The notes below the pieces were generated by a model. It had not been told where the DNA came from. It ran no database searches and worked only from the letters and a program-made list of their open reading frames with translations. From Escherichia coli (GTDB taxonomy: Bacteria; Pseudomonadota; Gammaproteobacteria; Enterobacterales; Enterobacteriaceae): DNA of 36,351 nucleotides. The stretch's first letter is position 1. Every line of letters begins with the position of its first letter. Of this stretch, positions 4,007 to 35,980 are shown in pieces. The stretch lies in the NCBI RefSeq assembly GCF_017348835.2, contig NZ_CP072313.1, one strand, 5' to 3'. A program made the position numbers and the translations under genes.

Positions 4007-4522
4007 TTACGCTCTGTTTTCCACGCGTTGCCACCCTGTCGCCCTGCGCTGTCCAGTCGTACCGTATTTTGCGCGGATTTCTTCTATCGTGTGTTCTTCA
4101 CGATTCCAGTAACGTTTATGTTCTTCTGGACGATAAAACCATTGTTTTTTCTTTGCCGCCCATTTACACCCGATTTCTTTTAAAGTTTCTTTATGTGTAA
4201 TGGTATCTCCACTAATCCAGACCCAGTTACCTATAACTTCAAATACCAGACCTGATAAACCAGAAAGAACGTTTAATACTTTTTCCAGGTCGTCACCGTA
4301 ATTATATCGAGAATGTTCATCAGTGCTCTGAAACTGATTAATTTTATCGATGTTAGCCATGAGAAAATCAAAAGCTGCATTTACCGCTTTCATCAGTTCA
4401 GCCCCTAAAGGATTACGATCTGGATGATATTTTAACGCAGCTTTTCTGTATGCTGCTTTGATATCTTTTTCGGTTAATTCACCGGATAACCCAAAAACAT
4501 TTAACGCTTCCTGGATATTCAT
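4007..4522 (-). CDS. J-domain (DnaJ-like) protein, 171 aa, first gene downstream of module A3 promoter
   Basis: N-terminal J-domain with the invariant HPD motif (AAYRKAALKYHPDRNP); C-terminal part unrecognised. Confidence 0.7.
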   Translation of the reverse strand: MNIQEALNVFGLSGELTEKDIKAAYRKAALKYHPDRNPLGAELMKAVNAAFDFLMANIDKINQFQSTDEHSRYNYGDDLEKVLNVLSGLSGLVFEVIGNWVWISGDTITHKETLKEIGCKWAAKKKQWFYRPEEHKRYWNREEHTIEEIRAKYGTTGQRRATGWQRVENRA

Positions 4523-4950
4523 TTCAAATCTCCTGTCCGTTTGGACTTAAGAAGGAAAGGAGCCAATCTCCTTTCGATGAAACAATAATACATCTATTTG
4601 GATGTATTATCAAGGTTTCTGATCTGAAAAACGGTAAATTATTTGATGATTGTCACGCTGTTATCCGCGCCAGCGGATGTAAGGGGCGAACGAAAGTTCC
4701 AGGGTAGCACAGGAGCCACATCGCCCCGAAGCGCGGCAACGCCGCTACTGTTATCAACCGGAACCAGGGAACACCCTCCCGCCCTGCTAAGCCCGACTGA
4801 CTCACAGACAACGATGACGCTGATTTGCGCCGCAGAATGCCGCAGTTAGCGCTCGCGCCAGCGAGTTTACGCCGTCCAGGGTTTCCCTGGACGGGGCGCT
4901 GTACTGCGCGTGTGAGCGTCAGCGAGCTACGGGCGCAACACGCCAGAAGT
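4523..4950 (+). repeat. type-A module copy 3
   Basis: near-identical to 693-1123 and 2453-2866. Confidence 0.8.
4585..4613 (-). promoter_or_regulatory. sigma70-type promoter of module A3 (-35 TTGATA, 17-bp spacer, -10 TATTAT)
   Basis: same as the promoters at 755-783 and 2515-2543. Confidence 0.55.
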
Positions 4951-5104
4951 TAAGCAGCCCTCATTGGCATCCCCACGACCTGAAGGACGTGGGGTTACGT
5001 CGCATTTGACAGGGATTCCCCATGTAAATCTTAAAGATTCCTGTTGAACATCTTAAATACTTCTGTAGTATACCTATAGTAATTACCTAACAGGGGAGAC
5101 AGTA

Positions 5105-7300: not shown

Positions 7301-7554
7301 GATGTCGCGCCAGCGACATGTAAGGCGGTACGCTGTGGTTACATGTGGAACTGGAGTAAAACCGCCGAAGCCCGGCGTAAGCCGGTACTGATTGATAGAT
7401 TTCACCTTACCTATCCCCATCCTGCTAAGCCATACCCGCTTTCAGCCATGACGGAGTTTCTGTGCGCGGTCGGAGTGGTCCCGACAAGGGTTTACCCGAA
7501 GTCGGGGCGTATCTCCGCGTTAGCGGGCCGTTAGGGCCGCTTACGAGCGTGTAT
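7301..7554 (+). repeat. type-C structured element copy 1; inverted partner at 35981-36235
   Basis: about 95% identical to the reverse complement of 35981-36235; shares the 5' hairpin and CTGCTAAGCC core with types A and B. Confidence 0.8.
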
Positions 7555-10600: not shown

Positions 10601-10799
10601 GATGCCGCGCCAGCGGCATGTAAGGCGGCACTCTGTACTTAAATATGGCTTTGCGGGTTATCCGCCGAAGCCCCGCGCCAGCGGGTACTGTCTTCTATAT
10701 TCTCTGGAACTGCGCTCGCGCCCCCTGCTAAGCCCAAAACGCACGGAACCAACAGCTACACGGTTGTTTCTGGTCGAAGACCGACACTGCTGAAGCGAT
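10601..10799 (+). repeat. type-B structured element copy 1
   Basis: hairpin ATGCCGC-GCCA-GCGGCAT, then TAAGGCGG, CCGCCGAAGCC, CTGCTAAGCC, TTGTTTCTGGTCGAAGA; starts at the stop codon of the upstream gene. Confidence 0.8.
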
Positions 10800-14974: not shown

Positions 14975-15175
14975 TAGCATGCCGCACAAGCGGCATGTAA
15001 GGCGGCACTCTGTACTTTAATATGGCTTTGCGGGTTATCCGCCGAAGCCCCGCGCCAGCGGGTACTGTCTTCTATATTCTCTGGAACTGCGCTCGCGCCC
15101 CCTGCTAAGCCAAAACCGCACGAAACCAACAGCCACGCGGCTGTTTCTGGTCGAAGACTGACAATCTTAAAGCGA
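14975..15175 (+). repeat. type-B structured element copy 2
   Basis: hairpin ATGCCGC-ACAA-GCGGCAT and downstream conserved blocks; sits between virB4 and virB5. Confidence 0.8.
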
Positions 15176-26198: not shown

Positions 26199-26786
26199 AT
26201 GTACCTACATATTGTCCCTAAACTTTTTCATCGCATGGCGAACAAATGCACTCTAAAATCCATCTCCATACCTGAACTTGATTTAATAATTGATGGCGAA
26301 TCATTGTCTGTAGGGAGGCCGTGGCCTAACAAATGTTTGTGGGTTGGAATGCGGAAAAGCAGAAAGGCAGTTAATGGACTTCTTTTGCATACAGATAAAA
26401 AACTAAGATGGTTCACTACCAGATATACCTGGGATATTGAAGATATGGGATTAATTCATCATCAGGTTAATACTTATATTGAAGATAATGAATTTGATAT
26501 GGTATCACAGGAAATTCTCTTAAATGGTTCTTTTGATAAGTGGAGTGACAGGGTGCATTCAGCTTATGAAGGTAAGCCTCCAGCAATAATCCAGCCCAAA
26601 ATGGAATCATTTTTAAAAAGACCAGGTGAAGACAGTCATGATATGTGGGAGGAGTTCGAGTGGGGTAACTTCCTCATATCAAGAGAAGAAAGCCTTTTAC
26701 TTCACACTATTCAGTCTGAACGATTGAATACAGATTGTTCTTTATTCAAAAGACAACCGTCTATTGAAAGTGCATTAGTTATATAA
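26199..26786 (+). CDS. hypothetical protein (start taken at ATG 26199; the ORF track starts at TTG 26169)
   Basis: AGGAAA Shine-Dalgarno 8 nt before the ATG; no family recognised. Confidence 0.5.
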   Translation: MYLHIVPKLFHRMANKCTLKSISIPELDLIIDGESLSVGRPWPNKCLWVGMRKSRKAVNGLLLHTDKKLRWFTTRYTWDIEDMGLIHHQVNTYIEDNEFDMVSQEILLNGSFDKWSDRVHSAYEGKPPAIIQPKMESFLKRPGEDSHDMWEEFEWGNFLISREESLLLHTIQSERLNTDCSLFKRQPSIESALVI

Positions 26787-27390: not shown

Positions 27391-29553
27391 ATGAAACTTT
27401 TTATTGCAGAAAAACCCGCAGTAGCAAATGATATTGTTAAGGCTCTTGGGGGCAATTTCACCCGTCATGATGGCTGGTTTGAAAGTGATAATGCCATTGT
27501 GACTAACTGCTTTGGTCATATTATCGAATCACAGCCACCGGAAAACTATAATCCTGATTACAAAGCCTGGAAAGTTGAAACACTCCCTTTACGTCTTTAC
27601 CCCGTCAAATATCAGCCAGTAGAAAGTGCCGCAAAGCAGGTTAACACAATTCTTGAGCTTATCAGACGTGGAGACGTGACTGAAATTGTTCATGCTGGCG
27701 ACCCTGATGAAGAAGGTCAGCTACTTGTTGATGAAGTTCTGGAATATGCGGGGAACACAAAACCCGTTAAGCGCGTTCTGATTAACGACAACACGCTTCC
27801 GGCAGTGAAAAAGGCACTGGCAAATCTTAAAGATAATCGTGATTTCAAAGGGCTTTACCTTAAGGCGCTGGCGCGTTCAGTTGCTGATGCCGTCTATGGC
27901 TTCTCTATGACGCGTGCTTACACAATCCCGGCAAAAACTAAAGGCTATAAAGGTGTTTTGTCTGTCGGACGGGTCCAGACACCCGTGCTTGGCCTGATTG
28001 TGAATCGTACCCGCGCTAACCAGAACCATAAATCCAGTTTTTACTACACCATGACCGGAGTCTTTCAGCGTGGTGCTGATGTTATCAGGGCGAACTGGAA
28101 GCCAGGGGAATTTGCTCCGCTGACAGACCGTAAATTACTTGATAAAGCGTGGGCAGACGGAACGGCAGCATCCCTTGCAGGAAAACCGGCTACAGTTGAA
28201 GCGGCAGCAACTGATGATAAAAAAACGGCTGCGCCGTTGCCGTTTAACCTGGTCAGACTCCAGCAATACATGAACAAGAAGTTCAAAATGACGGCACAAA
28301 AAACGCTGGATATTACGCAACAACTACGCGAAAAATATAAAGCAATTACTTATAACCGCTCTGATTGCTCATATCTTTCTGATGAACAATTCAGCGAAGC
28401 GCCGCAGGTTATCGATGCCCTGAAATCAGTCTTTCCTCAGTCGCTGGATATTGATTCTGCACGTAAAAGCAAAGCGTTTAACAGTGCAAAGGTGACTGCG
28501 CATACTGCGATAATCCCGACCGCCAGTGTGCCTGATGTTAACGCACTCAGCACCGACGAGCGCAATGTTTACCTGGCGATCGCACAACACTATCTTGTTC
28601 AGTTCATGCCTGAAAAAGCATACCAGGAAGTATCGGTTGCCATTCAGTGTGGTGATGAGTCGTTCTATGCCCGTGCCAGAAAAACAACTGACAGCGGATT
28701 TGAGGCGTTTCTTGGCGCGGAAACCACAGACGAAGGTGAATCAGAAGATAATGATGATTCCGCTTTTGAACAGCTTTGCAAAATTCGCACTGGTGAAACA
28801 CTGACAACAAAAGAAGTTGTTGTTAATGAGAAGAAAACAACACCGCCGCCGTTATTCACCGAAGCCTCCTTGCTTGCTGCGCTTGTTCGTGTCGCGGATT
28901 TTGTCACTGATCCAGTGATTAAAAAATTACTGAAGGATAAGGATAAAGACAAAAAAGATGAACATGGCGGTATTGGTACGCCAGCTACACGCGCTGCCAT
29001 TCTGGAAGCGCTGAAGAAGAGAAATTATATCACGCTGGAAAAAGGGAAACTTATTCCGACGGATACCGGATGTGCGCTTATTGATGCCCTACCAGGTATA
29101 GCGGTTAATCCTGATATGACAGCATTATGGTCTGAAAAACAGTCTGCCATTGAAAATGGCGACCTGACGGTTGAACAGTTTATTAATGATCTGTACGGTG
29201 AACTGACAGGCATGATTTCTGATGTTGACCTGGGCGAAATGAAAATTGAACCCGCAGCGCCAGCCGGACAATCTCCACGCCTGAGTTCTCCCTGCCCTTC
29301 CTGTGGTAAAGCGATTATTATCAGACCAAAAGGTTATTTCTGTACAGGATGTGAATTTAAAATCTGGAAAAATTTTTCTGGTAAAGCATTATCCGATAAG
29401 CAAGTGGAAACACTTGTTACAAAAGGTATTACCGGAGAATTAAAAGGATTTGTTAGTTCAAAAACGAATAAGAATTTCTCGGCTAAGGTTAAACTTGTTG
29501 ATAAAACGGCCGGAAAGCTGGGATTTGAATTTACCCACAAAAAATCAATATAG
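27391..29553 (+). CDS. topB: DNA topoisomerase III (TopB)
   Basis: 720 aa; Toprim-type N-terminus MKLFIAEKP; C-terminal zinc-ribbon Cys pairs (CPSCGK...CTGCEFK). Confidence 0.9.
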   Translation: MKLFIAEKPAVANDIVKALGGNFTRHDGWFESDNAIVTNCFGHIIESQPPENYNPDYKAWKVETLPLRLYPVKYQPVESAAKQVNTILELIRRGDVTEIVHAGDPDEEGQLLVDEVLEYAGNTKPVKRVLINDNTLPAVKKALANLKDNRDFKGLYLKALARSVADAVYGFSMTRAYTIPAKTKGYKGVLSVGRVQTPVLGLIVNRTRANQNHKSSFYYTMTGVFQRGADVIRANWKPGEFAPLTDRKLLDKAWADGTAASLAGKPATVEAAATDDKKTAAPLPFNLVRLQQYMNKKFKMTAQKTLDITQQLREKYKAITYNRSDCSYLSDEQFSEAPQVIDALKSVFPQSLDIDSARKSKAFNSAKVTAHTAIIPTASVPDVNALSTDERNVYLAIAQHYLVQFMPEKAYQEVSVAIQCGDESFYARARKTTDSGFEAFLGAETTDEGESEDNDDSAFEQLCKIRTGETLTTKEVVVNEKKTTPPPLFTEASLLAALVRVADFVTDPVIKKLLKDKDKDKKDEHGGIGTPATRAAILEALKKRNYITLEKGKLIPTDTGCALIDALPGIAVNPDMTALWSEKQSAIENGDLTVEQFINDLYGELTGMISDVDLGEMKIEPAAPAGQSPRLSSPCPSCGKAIIIRPKGYFCTGCEFKIWKNFSGKALSDKQVETLVTKGITGELKGFVSSKTNKNFSAKVKLVDKTAGKLGFEFTHKKSI

Positions 29554-29684
29554 TATCTAATGACACGTCTGAAGTATCCGATTAACCAGGGGTGGTTTGT
29601 CGACTTTAGATTGTGCCATATATGGAGTTGTTAGAAGAAAAGGGACTTCCTCCGGTCGGAGCCACCAACTCAAGGCCGGAAAAC

Positions 29685-29716
29685 AAAAAAGCCCGATTAC
29701 CAGTCGGGCTTTTTTG
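29685..29716. terminator. bidirectional rho-independent terminator between convergent topB and relaxase genes
   Basis: AAAAAA-AGCCCGA-TTACCAG-TCGGGCT-TTTTTT; works on both strands. Confidence 0.6.
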
Positions 29717-29723
29717 TTTCTGA

Positions 29724-32700
29724 TTAACGGGACCGCGTGTTATCCCTGTTTCTTTCCCGTTCACGCTCATTTTTCAAAGCGTTGTCATAACTCACTATTT
29801 CACGCTTCACGGCCTCTACCGTTTCAGGTTTTTTCATTGCTGCCTTGAGATCGTTTACATCCTCAAAACGTATGAATTTGAGCGTATCTTTGACTGTTTG
29901 TTTGTCAATATTCATTTCCTTCGCCAGTTGCTTAGAAATTCGCTCAATTTCTCTTTCCATCGCTTTTTCACTATTGACAGTCCGCTTTTTCTTTTCTGTA
30001 GTATTCTCGTTTTTTTCCTCGACTGATTTAGCTTTTTTCTGCCCTTGTTGTTCCTCAAAGGCTTTAATCTGTTCATTAATCGTCTGAGCACGGGCCGAAA
30101 TACTGTTAACCCCTTTCGAAAGCAGATCAACCTCTTCTTTCGGCGCACCATTTTCTACAGCTTCATTCAGTAAACGCTGGGCTTCCTGGTGCTGGCTGGC
30201 AATAACTTTTGCCTCTTCCTGTAGCTGCTGTAGCGATGCGTTATTTTGCTGATGAGGATTTTCAGTGGCTAACGCGGATTTGCTTTGCTCATCTCCGGTC
30301 TGTTTATCCTGACCAGTAGTCACGTCTTTCTCTGTTACCGGCTTCTGTTGCTGCGCTTCTTGTGGCTGCTGCTCGCGTTCTTCAGAATGAGCCGAAACGT
30401 TCTGCTGCACAGACTCCTGTTTTTCCGCTTCCTGTACCACGGATGTTTCAGACGTGGATTTTTGAGAAACAGTTTCTGACTTAACAGGCTGTTCCGGCAC
30501 TGCATCACGCGATTTATCATCATTATGTACAGATTCCGCTACTTCGGGCGTTCTTTCCTTAGCCTGGGTGTCTTTCTCGACTGAATTAACCTGCTCTGCT
30601 CTCTTTTCCTGCTCCTGTTCTGGTTTCTGTCCGGCGACTTGTTGCTGACGCTCTGCCTCGACGCTGTTTTCATGTCCATGTTCAGCTTTCAGTTCCTGGA
30701 GGCGGACCTGCATCATTTCATGATATTTTTCAGGTCGCAGAATAACATTCATCCCCTTCTCGGCTGCCGCCATTGCACAGGCTACCTTAAATTCTTCCGA
30801 GCCATTGAGTTTCAGCATCCCACCAAATTTCTCTTTTGCATAAAGAAGGGCTGCTTCAGCTTTATCCTGGGTAATTTCACCATTTACACGAACATGATTT
30901 CCTTTATCAGTGAAAACAGTCTGTGTTGTCTTCGGATCAAGGTAACGCGTTTCTTTTGGGCTGACCTTATGAGGAACAAGATCGGTTAGTTCACGTTTTA
31001 CATAATCCTGAACTTGCTGGGATTGCTGTACTCGCTTAACTACGCTGAAAACTTCCTTTTCATTACCGGAAGAAATGCTGTTTCCATCAACCGGATTACG
31101 GATTATCTTTTTTAAAGAATCACCTAAAGCCATATCATATCTCCTGTCTGGATTCCAACGGTGATAGTATGAGTTTATTTCGCGAAAACATGCCTTTCGA
31201 ATTGAGTTTATTTCACTCTCTCTTTCCAGCTTTTTAAATATAATGTACCCTCTAGCAACCTCCCGTTCCTGCTTGTTTCTTATCGCCAGAAGCCCTCTGA
31301 GTTCTGCCCTGTAATTAGCTATATTATCATTATGCTTATATTTAATCTCATTATTTACCCAACCTTTATGTTCATTTAAACAAATAAATCTTTCTTTTGC
31401 CTGTTGACGCGTAAGATTTACACGGGTAATAACAGCATCAAAAGGTTTGTTATCTTTCTGATCCTGCCAGATATCAAGTAATACCTCTTTTGCCTCATCC
31501 CATTCAAGATTCAGATGTTTAGTTAAAAAATCACTGGCATTCATATTTCGATTGCCAACTCTGAAACGCGGAGATCCATCCTGTCCATAGGTGACAGTAT
31601 GCTTTGATGGATCTATGTTAAAGCGTGTTTGCAGATTGGACAAATAACGTTCAGCATTAATTTCTGTGCGAATTTGTTTCAAAAAAGGTAAATCATCACT
31701 GCGCTGAATCGCCGCTTTAATATTTGATTCAAGCGCTGACTGAACTACTCTTCTTCCTGCTCTATCCTGCAACCGTCGCACATATCGATCTGGATCGACT
31801 TTTTGTCGTCCAGCCGTTGATAAATAACCGTATTCATTTTGCTGCAATAACAACTGAGATTTATTAATGCTTTTCCCACCTGATCTTCCGTGAAGTCCGT
31901 AAACCAGTTTGCGTGCTGGCAGACGTGGCAATCCGATTGTCTTACCGGATACAAACTTTCCGGTATTGTATTTAATACCGGACTGGTCACTATTCTGTCG
32001 TCGGTCCTGTCTTTGAAGGTTGTGTTTTTCGTCATAACGATTAATTACCTTTTTCAGATACATTTGCTTATCTTCACCAGCAAGTGCTGCATATTCTTTA
32101 CGAATTTTTTGCCCTGCCGGATGAATATGTTTTATCTCATGACTGATCGAACTCTTCCAGTCTTTCAGATGACTCTCAATCTGCGTCTTTGTGGGTTTTA
32201 AAAGTGGTATAGTTCGATCAGAGATATACTGACGTGAAAATAAAGGGCTTTTGAGTCGAGTAAATTTAGAGTCTCCTTCGAGCTTCACACCAAAGTAGCG
32301 ATCAGACTTCCCCTTATTATACTCCTTTACCTCACCAAAACGGGAAAGATAATCAGAAAATTGTTTCTCTGTTCGGATATTCTCTGTATCCAGCGCATCA
32401 AAAACCGTGGTTTTAAACTCACTGTGCCGCTCACGGTAAAAATCGCCTTTAGCCCTGGATAATACATTAGCGTGGTTATGGTCACTGACTCTGACACCAT
32501 CTTTAGGAGAAACAAGATTGTATTTATTATTAATGTGCTCCTGTATGGCATCAAGATGTTTCAAATAATGGTTAATAACTCCCCCAGGATTTAGTTTATT
32601 TCCTGTCACCAGATTAACTTCAGGGATAACAATGTGAATGTGAGGCTTACGCTCAACCATTTCTCCTGTTTTATGATCAGGCATCTGTTTTATTTTTGGA

Positions 32701-33011
32701 AGATGCGCTTCCGCATAAAAATTATATTCATCTTCATGATAAGCGTTCATCATGAGAGACTTGTATTCCTGGACTACATCATGCAACTTTGATTCAGAAA
32801 CATCATCTTCAAAAAAGGATAACGTAATATGCATATAGCGCTCTTGACCATTATCAGGTATCGCGTCAATAACTGATTCAGTCAATGCCAGATCGCCATC
32901 CAGAACTAATCGATGGTCAATTTCATCTCGGGTATATTCCCTTCCTTGCTTATGACCTTTTTCAAGGTATTCGCATACCCCCTTATTGCCACCGCTGATT
33001 CTGACTAACAT
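29724..33011 (-). CDS. conjugative relaxase (TaxC/MOB-type) with long Q/E/K-rich C-terminal extension
   Basis: 1095 aa; histidine-triad motif HIHIVIPEVN in the N-terminal domain; adjacent to the accessory gene and putative oriT. Confidence 0.85.
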   Translation of the reverse strand: MLVRISGGNKGVCEYLEKGHKQGREYTRDEIDHRLVLDGDLALTESVIDAIPDNGQERYMHITLSFFEDDVSESKLHDVVQEYKSLMMNAYHEDEYNFYAEAHLPKIKQMPDHKTGEMVERKPHIHIVIPEVNLVTGNKLNPGGVINHYLKHLDAIQEHINNKYNLVSPKDGVRVSDHNHANVLSRAKGDFYRERHSEFKTTVFDALDTENIRTEKQFSDYLSRFGEVKEYNKGKSDRYFGVKLEGDSKFTRLKSPLFSRQYISDRTIPLLKPTKTQIESHLKDWKSSISHEIKHIHPAGQKIRKEYAALAGEDKQMYLKKVINRYDEKHNLQRQDRRQNSDQSGIKYNTGKFVSGKTIGLPRLPARKLVYGLHGRSGGKSINKSQLLLQQNEYGYLSTAGRQKVDPDRYVRRLQDRAGRRVVQSALESNIKAAIQRSDDLPFLKQIRTEINAERYLSNLQTRFNIDPSKHTVTYGQDGSPRFRVGNRNMNASDFLTKHLNLEWDEAKEVLLDIWQDQKDNKPFDAVITRVNLTRQQAKERFICLNEHKGWVNNEIKYKHNDNIANYRAELRGLLAIRNKQEREVARGYIIFKKLERESEINSIRKACFREINSYYHRWNPDRRYDMALGDSLKKIIRNPVDGNSISSGNEKEVFSVVKRVQQSQQVQDYVKRELTDLVPHKVSPKETRYLDPKTTQTVFTDKGNHVRVNGEITQDKAEAALLYAKEKFGGMLKLNGSEEFKVACAMAAAEKGMNVILRPEKYHEMMQVRLQELKAEHGHENSVEAERQQQVAGQKPEQEQEKRAEQVNSVEKDTQAKERTPEVAESVHNDDKSRDAVPEQPVKSETVSQKSTSETSVVQEAEKQESVQQNVSAHSEEREQQPQEAQQQKPVTEKDVTTGQDKQTGDEQSKSALATENPHQQNNASLQQLQEEAKVIASQHQEAQRLLNEAVENGAPKEEVDLLSKGVNSISARAQTINEQIKAFEEQQGQKKAKSVEEKNENTTEKKKRTVNSEKAMEREIERISKQLAKEMNIDKQTVKDTLKFIRFEDVNDLKAAMKKPETVEAVKREIVSYDNALKNERERERNRDNTRSR

Positions 33012-33409
33012 TTATTAATCCCTGCAACAAACGCATCACGAATATTAACAAGAACATTAAGATAGCGTAAATATGTACTTTCTGAAATAAAACCATTGCG
33101 ATATTCTGTGTTAATTTTTTTGGCTATCTGATTAATATTATTGCTTGACTTATTAAAAAGTCTGAGTAATTCTCTGTATTCAACTGGACGTTTTTGTTTC
33201 AAAGTCGGAATATCATCCAGACGATTCAGTATAACCATCCGAAAAAACTCACTACGACTGACTTCAAGAGATGTAAAATACTCATGAAATGACTGATATT
33301 CCTCATCAGTCAATCGCAGTGATATCACATGTTTTCTCTCCACCTTTGATGTGGAAGCTACAGCCTTTTTTCCTTTGTCTTGTTTTTTCATGGTTCGTAG
33401 AACCTCCAT
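33005..33409 (-). CDS. relaxosome accessory protein (TaxA-like, probable RHH DNA-binding)
   Basis: small basic protein immediately upstream of and overlapping the relaxase gene; start may be at ATG 33391. Confidence 0.6.
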   Translation of the reverse strand: MEVLRTMKKQDKGKKAVASTSKVERKHVISLRLTDEEYQSFHEYFTSLEVSRSEFFRMVILNRLDDIPTLKQKRPVEYRELLRLFNKSSNNINQIAKKINTEYRNGFISESTYLRYLNVLVNIRDAFVAGINKC

Positions 33410-33560
33410 ATAGCGACCTGGTTGTAGAGATATACTGGGGTATTAGGGGGAGATCCCCCTAAGCACGTCGATTATACCGGAATTTATTCCGTGTATACAT
33501 CGCTGTCGTGCCTGTGTCTTGTAGTAAGATCAATTGAACAAGTCACAAGCCCACATTACA
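33410..33560. other. putative origin of transfer (oriT)
   Basis: intergenic between divergent relaxase operon and stb-like genes; perfect inverted repeat TTAGGGGG-AGAT-CCCCCTAA at 33443-33462; second repeat CGGAAT-TTA-TTCCG nearby. Confidence 0.5.
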
Positions 33561-33700
33561 ACCTACACAACAACCCACACACAAAAGCATGAAGCCCACA
33601 AAACAACCCACACTTAAACCCACAAAAAAGACCACAAAACCTATTGACAACCCACACAACACCCCACATAATCACCCACACTAACGAAAAGCAAATTGAT
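33545..33700. repeat. array of about 9 CCCACA-containing direct repeats at about 10-12 bp spacing
   Basis: CCCACA recurs (agCCCACAtt, caaCCCACAcac, agCCCACAaaa, aaCCCACActt, aaCCCACAaaa, ...), upstream of the StbA-like gene. Confidence 0.6.
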
Positions 33701-33752
33701 TTAAATAAAGTACTGTGCCAATGTAGGAGGTATGAGAGAGGAAACATAACAA

Positions 33753-34154
33753 ATGAAAAAGATCGATAGTTTATTATCTCCAATATGCGAGACGATAAAA
33801 GAAACAAATTCAAAATCAAAACAGGCTGTCTTCAATATGTATTTATCGAACATACTTGAAGCAAAAAGTTATTATACATGGGAGCAAATAACAGATTACA
33901 TAAATAACAACACCAAGACAGAACTAGCCAAAAAGACTTATATGAACATGACAGAGAGAGCCAAAAAAAGGCAAAAATGCACTGAGCAAAAAGATCTAAG
34001 AAAAAGCACCAATATAATTGAAAAAAAAACAGATGAAGACAACAAACAAAGAGGGGGCGTAAAAGGATTTTTTTCAACAATCAGCGAGAACAAAAACGAA
34101 ATAGATCACGATCCAAGCGCAACCAATGAAAAATTTATAAACAAATATCTTTAA
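33753..34154 (+). CDS. basic Lys/Asn-rich protein, possible StbA-like DNA-binding protein
   Basis: position after the repeat array and before a ParA-like ATPase; GAGAGG Shine-Dalgarno. Confidence 0.45.
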   Translation: MKKIDSLLSPICETIKETNSKSKQAVFNMYLSNILEAKSYYTWEQITDYINNNTKTELAKKTYMNMTERAKKRQKCTEQKDLRKSTNIIEKKTDEDNKQRGGVKGFFSTISENKNEIDHDPSATNEKFINKYL

Positions 34155-34171
34155 GTAAAGGTGTATCATAA

Positions 34172-34927
34172 ATGAAAAACTCAATAAATTTTATCCTTCA
34201 AGGAAAAGGCGGTGTAGGAAAATCATTTACAACGGCAATACTAGCACAATACTTTATTGATGAAAAAAACATGGATAACGTCGTTGTAGGCGACACAGAT
34301 CCTGTAAATACAACTACAGTTAAAGTAAAAAGATTAAATGCTGATTTAATACAAATCACTGAAAACAGCAAAGTAGTCCAATCTAAATTCGATCCAATGT
34401 TCGAATCAATGCTAACTAATGGTCAAAATACATTTGTCATTGATAATGGTGCTTCTACATTTTTACCATTAATTCAGTATTTCAATGACAACTATGTAAT
34501 GGATATGTTTAACGAAGTTGAACAAGAAGTTTATATCCATACTATTATTGTTGGCGGTCAGGCACAAGCAGATACAATAGAAGGTTTTGAAGATCTTGTT
34601 AAACTAGTAAAAGGAACAAAAGTAAAAATAATAGTATGGATTAATGAATTTCAGGGTGCACCAGCACTTGAAAACATTCCTTTAATTAAAACTAAATTCA
34701 TTGAAAAAAATAAGGATGTCATCGCTGGAGTTGTGGTTATTCAGGACAGAAAAAGCGATGCCTTTGCTTCTGACATCAAAAATTTAACCGAAAAATCACT
34801 AACATTAAAAGAAGCCCTTGAATCAGAATATTTTGGATTAATGGCTAAATCTCGTCTCAAGCGAGTTTTTAACGATATATATGTGCAACTTGATTCAATC
34901 TATGACATGCAGCACACAGAAGCATAA
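34172..34927 (+). CDS. ParA/MinD-superfamily P-loop ATPase (StbB-like)
   Basis: deviant Walker A GKGGVGKS near the N-terminus; adjacent to putative oriT. Confidence 0.7.
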   Translation: MKNSINFILQGKGGVGKSFTTAILAQYFIDEKNMDNVVVGDTDPVNTTTVKVKRLNADLIQITENSKVVQSKFDPMFESMLTNGQNTFVIDNGASTFLPLIQYFNDNYVMDMFNEVEQEVYIHTIIVGGQAQADTIEGFEDLVKLVKGTKVKIIVWINEFQGAPALENIPLIKTKFIEKNKDVIAGVVVIQDRKSDAFASDIKNLTEKSLTLKEALESEYFGLMAKSRLKRVFNDIYVQLDSIYDMQHTEA

Positions 34928-34976
34928 GTGATTATATAACAGCCCTTATGGGCTGTTATATTCATGAGGACAAGTT

Positions 34977-35654
34977 ATGATTAATGATAAATCCTTTAAC
35001 ATTGAAAACATTATTTCTGATATTTTTAAAGAAACCAGATTAAAAATAAGTAAGGACGATCCTGTTTTAAGCATAGTACTAATGCATGAAAAAATACTCG
35101 AACATGCACTAACACAACTTAAAAACAGTAATCAAATAGCTACTGAAAGATTATCTCATGACATATCTTCAATAAGAGATGCAATCAACGCATTACCTGA
35201 AGCTATTGATGAAAAAACGTCAGAACTACAACATGCAGCAGTAGCACTTCATGACGAATTCCAGGAAAGCAAAGGAGAAATTAAAGGTTCTCTGGAAGAA
35301 GCACGAATTAATGCAACAGAGAAATTAGCAGAAAGTGCAAAAGAACTTCAATTAAACATTACAAAAGTTGCCGAAAAAACAACAGAAACAATAGACACAG
35401 TAAATAAAATAATAAGCAATATAGAAACCGAACTATATGACATAAATAAAAAAGCTCTACATGATTATGTAAAAGAGATTAAGTTAGTGGATGAAAAAAG
35501 AAAAAGTATAACAACTAACCTGGAAAGTGCAATTAATGACGCTTTCAAAAAAAGCGTAAAATCGTTTAAGTTTTATTGTAGCGCGGCATTAATTATTAGC
35601 ACTCTACTACAATTCACAATGTGGGGGTTCTTTCTATATAAGCTTCTGACCTGA
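34977..35654 (+). CDS. coiled-coil protein with C-terminal transmembrane anchor (225 aa)
   Basis: GAGGA Shine-Dalgarno; C-terminal hydrophobic segment AALIISTLLQFTMWGFFLY. Confidence 0.5.
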   Translation: MINDKSFNIENIISDIFKETRLKISKDDPVLSIVLMHEKILEHALTQLKNSNQIATERLSHDISSIRDAINALPEAIDEKTSELQHAAVALHDEFQESKGEIKGSLEEARINATEKLAESAKELQLNITKVAEKTTETIDTVNKIISNIETELYDINKKALHDYVKEIKLVDEKRKSITTNLESAINDAFKKSVKSFKFYCSAALIISTLLQFTMWGFFLYKLLT

Positions 35655-35860
35655 TGTTTTAAATGCCGCTTTAGCGGCATGGAAGGCGGCACTCTGTAGC
35701 TAAATGTGGTTTCGCTGGTTATCCGCCGAAGCCCCGCGCTAGCGGGTGCTGAATTCTATATTCTGAGGAACAGCGCTCGCGCCCCCTGCTAAGCCAAAAA
35801 CGCACGAAACCAACAGCCACTCGATTGTTTCTGGTCGAAGACTGACAATGTTAAAGCGAC
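35655..35860 (+). repeat. type-B structured element copy 4
   Basis: hairpin ATGCCGC-TTTA-GCGGCAT; starts at the stop of the upstream gene. Confidence 0.8.
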
Positions 35861-35980
35861 GTGACAAAAATATTTGAGCAACTACTCAAGAAAATTCGGT
35901 TTTGAAATTGAACAATGGTCTGATTTCACACCGACAATGCAATATTAATCTGCCGTTACAACGTCACTGAAACTCTGCTC

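Follow-up and report, generated by a model that had tools for sequence, protein, structure and literature searches.

An A/T-rich stb/TraL-type operon next to oriT on an IncI2-typed plasmid of Escherichia coli

The locus

The window, that is the whole stretch of 36,351 nucleotides that was analysed (contig NZ_CP072313.1 of assembly GCF_017348835.2), belongs to a 36-kb element typed IncI2, whose closest complete relatives are typed just as 'mobilizable' (MOB-suite). Its A/T-rich block at 33700-35654 consists of exactly three coding sequences, which are the plasmid's oriT-adjacent stb/TraL-type operon. The three genes are on the plus strand (33753-34154, 34172-34927 and 34977-35654) and mobC and the relaxase gene are on the minus strand, so that the two groups diverge across oriT. 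The operon is transcribed away from oriT, on the side that would be the leading region by analogy with homologous systems. The name 'stb-like genes', under which the block appeared in a first-pass annotation, is well chosen: the trio diverges from the mobC-relaxase pair and has a ParA/MinD-type ATPase in the middle. The features of the locus are as follows.

29724-33011, minus strand: MOBP relaxase, 1095 aa, left neighbour of the operon, GC 0.414 (Pfam; annotation of pDETEC35)
33005-33409, minus strand: NikA/MobC-like relaxosome accessory protein of the ribbon-helix-helix type, GC 0.33 (Pfam)
33443-33521, plus strand: putative oriT core (inverted repeats, five-plasmid alignment, BLAST breakpoint)
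33443-33462: distal inverted repeat of oriT, TTAGGGGGA/TCCCCCTAA
33478-33491: proximal inverted repeat of oriT, CGGAAT-TT-ATTCCG
33550-33680, plus strand: ten direct repeats with a CCCACA core, recurring every 12 bp and grouped 3, 4 and 3
33644-33672, plus strand: sigma-70-like promoter, TTGACA, 17 nt, CATAAT, 11 of 12 matches (best-scoring in a promoter scan)
33753-34154, plus strand: orf133, gene 1, in the position of StbA/TraK/YciA_R721 (open reading frame; synteny per literature)
34172-34927, plus strand: TraL-type (StbB-like group 1) ParA/MinD ATPase (NCBIfam, Pfam, Walker A)
34977-35654, plus strand: orf225, gene 3, with a coiled coil and a C-terminal transmembrane tail, in the position of StbC/TraM (open reading frame, sequence)
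35663-35859, plus strand: GC-richer repeat, about 190 bp long and present in four copies, of which this one lies at the right edge of the block (self-BLAST, sequence)

The relaxase matches the Pfam family LPD7 (2.8e-16) and, weakly, the MobA/VirD2 nuclease family Relaxase (1.2e-3). The MobC-like protein matches NikA-like (1.2e-8) and DUF6290 (3e-6). The intergenic region between mobC and orf133, 343 bp long, contains the inverted repeats and a block, GTGTATACATCGCTGTCGTGCCTGTGT, that is conserved across all five aligned plasmids. A candidate nic was placed within this block by analogy with the MOBP consensus YATCCTG|Y. On the other side of the operon, the 190-bp repeat opens with a hairpin, ATGCCGC-TTTA-GCGGCAT, and the GC content climbs to 0.47. 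The single-strand folding of this repeat is not significant (z -0.12), and a comparison of the 430-bp leading-region repeats with the IncN region holding CUP elements found no nucleotide similarity. An Rfam search of the block gave no match.

The three gene products

In orf133, roughly the first 75 residues are predicted to form a helical domain, which a disordered linker separates from a short, conserved motif at the C-terminus. The AF2 model has a pLDDT of 73-85 over residues 1-60 and of less than 50 over residues 76-119, and the N-terminal part is conserved in sequence comparisons. The C-terminus matches StbA of IncN and IncW plasmids weakly (E about 0.1). A Pfam search with orf133 gave no match, a search of the PDB with the single sequence or a six-sequence profile gave nothing relevant, and StbA is absent among the fold matches. 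Profile-profile alignment (hhalign) of the orf133 family with TraK (DUF5338) gave an E value of 0.29.

The ATPase has the Walker A motif GKGGVGKS at residues 11-18. It matches NCBIfam PRK13886 at positions 4-238 of the 241 in the model (E 8.5e-53) with a score of 179.2 bits, under the curated cutoff of 360, and Pfam CbiA with 1.5e-7. Judged by these profile scores, it is TraL-like and yet not a close member of the RP4 TraL family. PGAP names it TraL nonetheless. Homologues are found on 1287 plasmids in PLSDB, low-GC plasmids of Haemophilus and Campylobacter among them. The profile matches of orf225 are weak coiled-coil-type Pfam ones and a faint one to TraM (E 0.045). It is 86% identical to its counterpart in L004, one of the comparison plasmids, and 26-32% identical to those in L002 and L003, which marks it, at the level of sequence, as the most variable gene of the module.

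Base composition and codon usage

The GC content of 33700-35654 is 0.316, that of the rest of the window 0.435 and that of the whole 0.429. Among all 1955-bp intervals (mean 0.4286, s.d. 0.042), the lowest value, 0.314, belongs to the one starting at 33687, and just 0.13% are as low as the block. The runner-up that does not overlap it, 24249-26203, has a GC content of 0.36. In 300-nt steps the oriT intergenic region has 0.42-0.44, the stretch 33753-35654 has 0.28-0.36 and the DNA from 35551 onward 0.47, and 33567-35725 is the sole run longer than about 640 bp in which the value stays below 0.36. The edges of the block are sharp and coincide with the coding sequences.

GC and GC3 are 0.311 and 0.328 in orf133, 0.320 and 0.226 in the TraL gene, and 0.310 and 0.212 in orf225, whereas the T4SS genes have 0.41-0.49 and 0.37-0.53 and the relaxase gene 0.414 and 0.359. 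At synonymous third positions, GC3s is 0.198 for TraL and 0.199 for orf225. Pooled over the three genes, GC1, GC2 and GC3 are 0.417, 0.283 and 0.243, as against 0.516, 0.366 and 0.401 in all other genes; the deficit is thus present at all three codon positions and is strongest at the third. Synonymous codon usage also differs from that of the rest (chi-square 182, df 41, p=1e-19); 500 size-matched random samples of codons gave a chi-square of 41±9, with a maximum of 72. Adenine makes up 42.8% of the coding strand. Runs of five or more A occur at 14.2/kb, compared with 4.3/kb elsewhere, and the 27 runs observed exceed the 15.4±3.4 of composition-matched shuffles. The earlier description of these genes as more A/T-rich than the T4SS and relaxase regions, with long A-runs, is confirmed by sliding-window GC and by codon usage, both of which differ sharply from the rest.

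The products are rich in Lys, Asn and Ile, as had also been noted: these residues account for 11.2, 7.2 and 9.9%, compared with 7.9, 5.0 and 6.6% elsewhere, FYMINK residues for 38 versus 30% and GARP residues for 13 versus 22%. Coiled-coil and DNA-binding proteins rich in Lys, Asn, Ile and Glu might by themselves force A-rich codons, the nucleotide bias being secondary. The amino acid figures and the share of A in the coding strand agree with this explanation, but the largest deficit is synonymous, GC3s is already low in the globular TraL, and TraL homologues of IncP-1-like plasmids, which have the same fold, are coded at 64% GC. An explanation by protein composition only is contradicted by the GC3s values, was rejected, and is highly improbable.

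The block is the extreme of a continuum rather than a lone outlier. The gene for the MobC-like protein (0.33) and about ten other small genes are also low in GC (0.29-0.37, GC3s 0.20-0.30), and the gene-level difference, with n=3 genes on the side of the block, has a Mann-Whitney p of 0.018. Measured in 300-nt steps, some 37% of the plasmid has less than 40% GC; the E. coli host has a GC content of about 0.51. Since the other small genes are equally A/T-rich, part of the signal may not be a trait of this module but reflect a T4SS/Rep core that is richer in GC than the remainder of the plasmid.

The iteron array and the promoter

Eight of the 12 plus-strand copies of CCCACA in the window lie at 33550-33680, and there is no second cluster. 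The last set of iterons (33651, 33663 and 33675) overlaps the promoter of the operon. The same array is found in L002-L004, alongside the same allele of orf133. L005, in which the N-terminal domain of the gene-1 product is only 54% identical, has TTGACTTACA repeats in place of this array, arranged as two sets of five. The CCCACA array is probably the orf133 operator and is predicted, as an analogue of stbS of R388, to be a centromere-like site for the same protein. Because orf133 is not tied to StbA or TraK, its binding to the iterons is deduced from their position and co-variation only. The iteron-covered promoter suggests autorepression by orf133 as the main control of the operon.

Exchange of the module

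The DNA of the sibling L005 is 97.8% identical to the window up to 33513, unrelated from there to 35178, and then 90% identical (BLAST). The break at 33513/33514 is the 3' edge of the conserved block GTGTATACATCGCTGTCGTGCCTGTGT. The ATPase of L005 is of the StbB family, with 35% identity to StbB of IncN and IncW plasmids (about 1e-25), and the sibling RCS93_pII carries a true StbB-type cassette at the site of the operon. StbB hits fall on 1509 plasmids of PLSDB. In L003 the DNA match, 93.8%, is confined to 33437-34906; orf133 and TraL are 95-96% identical as proteins, the relaxase 45%, MobC 48% and the T4SS proteins 33-61%. L006, which shares the backbone of L003, has an orf133 with 45% and a TraL with 76% identity. 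Between the window and its sibling L004, dS is 0.088, 0.033 and 0.38 in the three genes of the block, and 0.0014 and 0.014 in the genes for the relaxase and VirB4. In every relative examined the site is filled by an analogous three-gene operon, and no integrase, IS element or insertion scar flanks the block; the only repeat at its flanks is the plasmid-wide one of 190 bp.

These comparisons of sequence indicate that the history of the block disagrees with that of the flanking genes, the module recombining independently of its neighbours. It would be swapped between backbones as a unit. On the left the exchanged piece would start at the conserved block of oriT that holds the candidate nic, and on the right it would finish either where the ATPase gene ends or within gene 3. 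A more far-reaching proposal is that everything past nic (iterons, StbA-like binder and TraL/StbB ATPase) is a swappable specificity cassette, exchanged between unrelated MOBP backbones at oriT, possibly in an event initiated by the relaxase at nic. The extreme A/T-richness would then be no passive by-product but have been selected for in the DNA that enters first, for example because H-NS/Hha keep it quiet until orf133 can repress its own operon. This we regard as speculative and rather improbable.

The 'different evolutionary origin' proposed in the first-pass annotation is supported insofar as the module has a recombination history of its own, as L003, L005 and the dS values against L004 attest. 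A recent import from a low-GC source is not supported. In such a classical compositional island, the three genes would have come recently from a low-GC donor and would still be undrifted; the sharp edges, the distinct codon usage, the conflict with the flanks and the low-GC Haemophilus and Campylobacter plasmids that carry TraL homologues would fit. Against this, the order of relaxase, oriT and operon is kept out to Haemophilus plasmids, IncN and IncW, the locus is occupied in every relative and replaced only by an analogous operon, and neither mobility genes nor scars are present beyond the 190-bp repeat. The composition of the operon in other plasmids, described below, argues in the same direction.

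Persistence of the low GC content

The GC survey covered 14 hand-picked loci, which come from about 11 backbones. In 8 of 8 loci of the MOBP6/LPD7 type the operon is below its plasmid by 0.05 to 0.12, at or under the 4.5th percentile; for a Pseudomonas plasmid of 59% GC, which has ssb in the gene-1 position, the measurement covers TraL and the next gene only. The differences for stbABC of the IncW-like and IncN plasmids are -0.07 and -0.09 (7th percentile), and in a Haemophilus plasmid the operon has 0.33 and the plasmid 0.374. In seven independent backbones, operons of the stb type thus rank among the segments lowest in GC. The alternative cassette of L005 has a GC content of 0.31-0.36, every allele seen being A/T-rich. 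Four IncP-1-like TraKLM operons, by contrast, show no deficit in GC (0 to +0.02 relative to the plasmid, with one more at -0.04), which implies that low GC is not intrinsic to the function.

As every allele is A/T-rich and the operon is low in seven backbones, low GC is something that the module retains, and not the mark of a recent import. The operon lies below its plasmid in all seven, even in the Haemophilus plasmid with its 37% GC, and no identifiable donor composition explains this. Recent import was rejected on the grounds of conserved synteny and A/T-rich alleles everywhere; it is largely refuted, and very unlikely.

Neutral drift would leave the composition without a function, through weak selection and low expression under the universal A/T bias of mutation. 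GC3s does range continuously between 0.20 and 0.51, many small genes have values close to those of the block, GC3s correlates with conservation in siblings (Spearman 0.41-0.45, p 0.02-0.005), and dS in the block exceeds that of neighbouring genes. However, dN/dS in the three genes is 0.08-0.37, and they are under clear purifying selection. In R388, conjugation needs StbB and stability needs StbA. The IncP-1-like homologues lack the deficit, and because the breakpoints are discrete, replacement of alleles accounts better for the elevated dS. Drift of this kind is an unlikely explanation.

We favour, as somewhat the more probable reading, that the A/T-rich block is a stb/TraL operon repressed by iteron-bound orf133, whose ATPase and membrane protein provide a link to transfer, and that low GC is a stable trait of an exchanged module, due neither to recent import nor to decay. 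Orf133 would bind the ten CCCACA repeats, spaced 12 bp apart, over its own operon promoter; binding would repress the operon and mark the oriT-adjacent DNA, and the ATPase and the membrane protein would couple this complex to conjugative transfer in the manner of StbA and StbB of R388. The composition would result from long-term A/T-biased evolution of a fast-evolving, often exchanged module, which a GC deficit at all codon positions, strongest at the third, fits.

H-NS

From its GC content the block is likely to be bound by H-NS, and its silencing is plausible. Binding is treated here as a consequence of composition, possibly exploited by the plasmid, and not as a demonstrated cause. The stronger proposal makes silencing the cause of the composition: the 2-kb block would be coated by H-NS/StpA from the chromosome, or in relatives by H-NS and Hha encoded on the plasmid, and selection would keep A/T and A-tracts so that the first DNA to enter the recipient stays quiet and cheap. 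A GC content of about 31.5% and A-runs three times denser than elsewhere, and above composition-matched shuffles, point this way. So do the promoter-like sites in 33300-36351, which number 14 where 9.5±3.3 are expected; spurious promoters are of the kind that H-NS masks. The plasmid pDETEC35, 99.7-99.9% identical, encodes hha and an H-NS family gene, and H-NS or Hha proteins are encoded by the IncW-like L013 and the IncP-like L012. Plasmids encoding H-NS are more A/T-rich, MOBP subgroups included (PMC12826799), and the transfer genes of IncX plasmids are silenced by plasmid H-NS homologues.

On the other hand, hns and hha are absent from the window plasmid, L004 and L005. Allowing at most 2 mismatches, a scan for the high-affinity motif TCGATAAATT showed no clear enrichment over the window (57 matches, 61±8 expected), and the 6 matches in the block, where about 3 are expected pro rata, are at the level of an A/T-rich motif in A/T-rich DNA. 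With some 37% of the plasmid below 40% GC, targeting by H-NS would not be specific to the block. The very A/T-rich vir operon of R6K largely excludes H-NS, so low GC alone is no predictor of occupancy. The iteron-covered promoter, finally, points to a dedicated repressor mechanism. Silencing as the reason for the composition is doubtful.

Significance

A compositional anomaly that could be read as foreign DNA is here a core transfer-associated operon of a known type, for which an annotation as cargo or xenogeneic island would be wrong. The iteron array with its 12-bp period was previously unannotated and is a testable candidate operator or centromere for the stb-like system of IncI2/MOBP6 plasmids, which is also present on mcr-1 plasmids. 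Near-identical backbones with either a TraL- or a StbB-type cassette, joined at the nic-region block, are an example of the mixed distribution in MOBP6 plasmids described in 2011. That stb-type operons in several families lie systematically below the GC of their plasmids would, if confirmed at scale, need explaining.

Comparison with known systems

The block resembles the xenogeneic DNA targeted by H-NS and the 'stealth' plasmids encoding H-NS or Hha in its A-tracts and in being much poorer in GC than its E. coli host; the near-identical sibling pDETEC35 has hha and hns. It differs from them in that the window plasmid has no hns and in that the locus is a conserved core transfer module, not cargo.

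Guynet et al. (2011, PMC3098194) described an operon of three genes, adjoining oriT in the leading region, for MOBF11, MOBP11 and MOBP6 plasmids. According to the same work, the homologues of StbA include YciA_R721 and TraK_RP4, StbB proteins form two groups, KGGxxK[T/S] and SGxxGK[T/S], with MOBP6 plasmids in both, TraK of RP4 binds between nic and traK, and the synteny of StbABC and TraKLM extends to MOBP6/IncI2 plasmids. Several traits of such operons are found here: a co-oriented trio, a ParA/Soj/MinD-superfamily ATPase with a deviant Walker A in the middle, and repeats between the candidate nic and gene 1 that overlap the promoter. For a first gene homologous to StbA/TraK, with an N-terminal HTH DNA-binding domain, orf133 is a candidate by position. 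The layout recurs in IncI2, IncX4-typed, Haemophilus, IncN and IncW loci.

The operon shares with stbABC (IncW R388, IncN pKM101/R46) three genes by oriT, divergent from the relaxase gene on the leading side, a ParA/MinD-type ATPase in the middle and a GC content below that of the plasmid; an IncW-like and an IncN plasmid were used as stand-ins for R388. As modelled, orf133 is similar to StbA in its small size, N-terminal helical domain, disordered tail and C-terminal motif (the DNA-binding domain of R388 StbA is the subject of bioRxiv 10.1101/2022.04.29.490116), and orf225 has the coiled coil and C-terminal transmembrane segment of IncN/IncW StbC. In R388, too, ten direct repeats spaced by about one helical turn overlap the promoter. 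The stbDRs of R388, however, are 9 bp long, have a period of 11 bp, form two groups of five and are also present in other promoters, whereas the repeats here have a CCCACA core, a 12-bp period and sets of 3, 4 and 3, and the array is found nowhere else on the plasmid. The ATPase belongs to the TraL subgroup (KGGxxKS) and not to StbB (SGxxGKT), to which it has no BLASTP similarity, gene 3 is twice as long, and the relaxase is MOBP6/LPD7 rather than MOBF.

The position next to oriT and the orientation are also those of the traK-traL-traM 'leader operon' of the IncP-1 plasmids RP4/RK2, with iterons where TraK binds, and TraL is the nearest named family over its full length. The identity to TraL is only 31-33%, however, with a score below the curated cutoff, orf133 has no match to the TraK family (Pfam DUF5338), gene 3 matches TraM only at E 0.045, and the IncP-1-like operons are without a GC deficit.

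The direct orthologues of the operon are in the yciA region of IncI2 plasmids (R721 and the pHNSHP45-type mcr-1 plasmids). Those plasmids have a relaxase and a MobC with no more than about 40% identity and a gene 3 with just 32%, but orf133 is 77% and TraL 89% identical, the DNA is 82.9% identical over 33492-34906, and the same iteron array and the same synteny of mobC and the LPD7 relaxase are present.

Composition of the stb-like block

The block at 33700-35654 is an operon of three genes:

33753-34154, plus strand: orf133, the first gene; structure prediction gives a helical N-terminal domain of ~75 residues and a disordered remainder
34172-34927, plus strand: the TraL-type gene, in the middle of the operon; a ParA/MinD-type ATPase with the Walker A motif GKGGVGKS
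34977-35654, plus strand: orf225, the third gene; a coiled-coil protein with a C-terminal transmembrane tail

The GC content of the block is 0.316, compared with 0.435 in the rest of the window. This is the minimum among all windows of the same size, 0.13% of which are equally low, and the next non-overlapping one has 0.36. The stretch 33567-35725 is the only one longer than ~640 bp in which the 300-nt GC stays continuously below 0.36. The edges of low GC coincide with the limits of the three coding sequences; outside them, the oriT intergenic region has a GC of 0.42-0.44, and the value reaches 0.47 directly past the last stop codon. Pooled GC1/GC2/GC3 values are 0.417/0.283/0.243 in the block and 0.516/0.366/0.401 in all other genes, and synonymous codon usage differs from the rest with a chi-square of 182 (df 41; size-matched random codon samples, 41±9, maximum 72). 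The A/T-richness that the first-pass annotation had seen by eye is thus statistically robust, as are the Lys/Asn/Ile-rich products and long A-runs it described: K, N and I are enriched, and runs of at least five A occur at 14.2/kb against 4.3/kb elsewhere (27 observed, 15.4±3.4 in composition-matched shuffles).

By composition, the genes of the plasmid fall into two tiers: GC3s is 0.40-0.51 for the T4SS, the coupling protein and RepA, and 0.20-0.35 for most other genes; the block is the extreme and longest part of the lower tier, not an isolated outlier. Genes with higher GC3s tend to be better conserved between siblings (Spearman 0.41-0.45). Small hypothetical genes make up a second A/T-rich patch (24249-26203, GC 0.36), which lies between the coupling protein and the topoisomerase. 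It is another variable A/T-rich spot, because 25573-26150 has no homology in the siblings L004 and RCS93_pII (NZ_LT985310).

The oriT intergenic region

The operon is divergent from a NikA/MobC-like gene and an LPD7-type MOBP relaxase. The 343-bp region between them contains inverted repeats and a block conserved across all relatives compared, GTGTATACATCG.TGTCGTGCCT. This block includes GCCTG/T, similar to the MOBP nic core, and may by analogy hold a candidate nic. The oriT-proximal inverted repeat (33478-33491) keeps its structure in the equivalents from two compared plasmids, L002 and L003, and its sequence varies with the relaxase of the plasmid (CGGAAT/ATTCCG, GCCAT/ATGGC, GACCG/CGGTC). 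The pattern suggests that a relaxosome recognition hairpin, situated upstream of the conserved nic-region block, has undergone compensatory change.

Eight of the 12 plus-strand copies of CCCACA in the whole plasmid fall at 33550-33680 and, together with two degenerate copies, make ten repeats with a 12-bp period. The array overlaps the best promoter match of the region (TTGACA-17-CATAAT, 33644-33672), and is kept in IncI2 mcr-1 plasmids and an IncX4-typed plasmid having this orf133 allele. In RCS93_pII, where the N-terminal domain of the gene-1 product is only 54% identical to that of orf133, there are instead two sets of five TTGACTTACA repeats, also with a 12-bp period. Since the array co-varies with the gene-1 allele, it is likely the operator or centromere-like site of orf133.

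H-NS and a near-identical relative

The window represents an entire circular plasmid, 99.7-99.9% identical end-to-end, in circular permutation, to E. coli pDETEC35 (NZ_CP116127; IncI2, MOBP). The sole difference is a 2.2-kb segment between topoisomerase and relaxase, absent from the window, which encodes hha, an H-NS family gene and dqlB. The topoisomerase-relaxase intergenic region of the window matches the AgrB antisense RNA (29631-29716, plus strand; Rfam, 61.9 bits, E 2.7e-8), which would imply a dinQ/dqlB-type type I toxin-antitoxin locus. The pDETEC35 segment sits at the same spot.

H-NS prefers A/T-rich, A-tract-dense DNA, so the block, at ~31.5% GC with dense A-tracts, very likely binds it in E. 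coli. Silencing of the operon by H-NS, as the first-pass annotation had proposed, is plausible at most. The near-identical pDETEC35 does carry hha and hns, and plasmid-encoded H-NS has been linked to A/T-rich MOBP plasmids (PMC12826799) and, in recent literature, to the silencing of IncX transfer genes. However, the window plasmid has no hns gene, a window scan found no enrichment of the high-affinity H-NS motif, more than one third of the plasmid is likewise below 40% GC, and on R6K H-NS is largely kept off a very A/T-rich operon. That iterons cover the promoter points to a dedicated autorepressor.

Exchange of the module

Compared with RCS93_pII, the window is 97.8% identical up to 33513, unrelated from there as far as 35178 (inside the third gene) and 90% identical thereafter; the junction falls where the conserved oriT block ends on its 3' side. 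The replacing cassette (RCS93_pII 28595-30326) encodes a StbB-family ATPase with SGNVGKT, 35% identical to IncN/IncW StbB at ~1e-25. In PLSDB it is limited to four plasmids, each an E. coli plasmid of 35-43 kb; the TraL-type allele occurs in hundreds of IncI2 plasmids. In L003, an E. marmotae plasmid, 93.8% DNA identity is restricted to 33437-34906: orf133 and TraL are 95-96% identical as proteins, and the relaxase (45%), MobC (48%) and T4SS (33-61%) are far less so. In L006, which shares its backbone with L003, orf133 and TraL are 45% and 76% identical. Against L004, a close sibling, dS is 0.088, 0.033 and 0.38 in the three genes, 0.0014 in the adjacent relaxase and 0.014 in VirB4. By these breakpoints, identities and dS values the module does have its own evolutionary history, and to this extent the 'different evolutionary origin' of the earlier claim stands.

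The composition is no evidence of foreign import, the other sense of that claim. The alternative cassette is likewise A/T-rich (GC 0.31-0.36), dN/dS in the block is 0.08-0.37, none of the relatives examined has an empty stb site, and the block has no mobility genes beside it. Operon GC ranks no higher than the 4.5th percentile of its plasmid in all eight MOBP6/LPD7-type loci examined, among them one on a Haemophilus plasmid of 37% GC and one on a Pseudomonas plasmid of 59% GC (the latter measured over TraL and the following gene only). The IncW-like and IncN stbABC lie at the 7th percentile; four IncP-1-like TraKLM operons, the only such exceptions, have no deficit. Low GC is best read as a lasting property of a functional module that can be exchanged, reflecting module-level ancestry and dynamics and not recent acquisition.

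Repeats around the block and in the leading region

Three repeat families are present:

689-1122, 2449-2867, 4519-4953 (full) and 21384-21658 (partial): ~430-bp repeat, 88-94% identical
10602-10786, 14979-15163, 23722-23907 and 35663-35859: ~190-bp repeat, four copies, 85-95% identical
35981-36232 and 7302-7553: 252-bp inverted duplication, 95% identity

Downstream of the block, each ~430-bp copy precedes small minus-strand genes directed toward oriT (a CcgAII homologue, a DnaJ-like ORF and hypotheticals). The CUP-controlled leading region of IncN pKM101 has a similar layout, but at the nucleotide level the repeats show no similarity to the IncN locus. Their plus strand, when single-stranded, folds better than shuffled sequence does (z -3.3). 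The ~190-bp copies sit at the boundaries of operons, one preceding virB1 and the others following virB4, the coupling protein and, directly, orf225; all begin with the hairpin ATGCCGC-TTTA-GCGGCAT; their single-strand folding is not significant (z -0.12). One copy of the 252-bp duplication is downstream of repA, in a region annotated as RepA4 in relatives, and the other, ~330 bp past the block, might be a second single-strand priming signal in the leading region. The sequence at the repA-side end of the window is common to more than 5000 plasmids at 90-95%, mostly conjugative plasmids of Escherichia, Klebsiella and Salmonella.

Relation to known stb operons

The middle-gene ATPase matches NCBIfam TraL (PRK13886) over its full length at 8.5e-53, with a score below the curated cutoff. 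Orf133 has no family match; a C-terminal motif weakly similar to IncN/IncW StbA is the only signal from attempts to link it to StbA/TraK. StbABC/TraKLM synteny is known for MOBF11, MOBP11 and MOBP6 (IncI2, R721) plasmids, with YciA_R721 and TraK_RP4 named as StbA homologues, and the ATPases form two groups, KGGxxK[T/S] and SGxxGK[T/S], with MOBP6 plasmids in both (Guynet et al. 2011, PMC3098194). The three-gene operon has this same synteny, with a ParA/MinD-type ATPase in the middle, so the label 'stb-like' holds and the system is known in kind. The operon is an uncharacterised new member of the known stb/TraL oriT-adjacent class, real, well delimited and ordinary, to which it brings modest, testable additions: the iteron array, the TraL-type and StbB-type cassettes swapped at the oriT block, and a GC deficit that recurs among stb-type operons.
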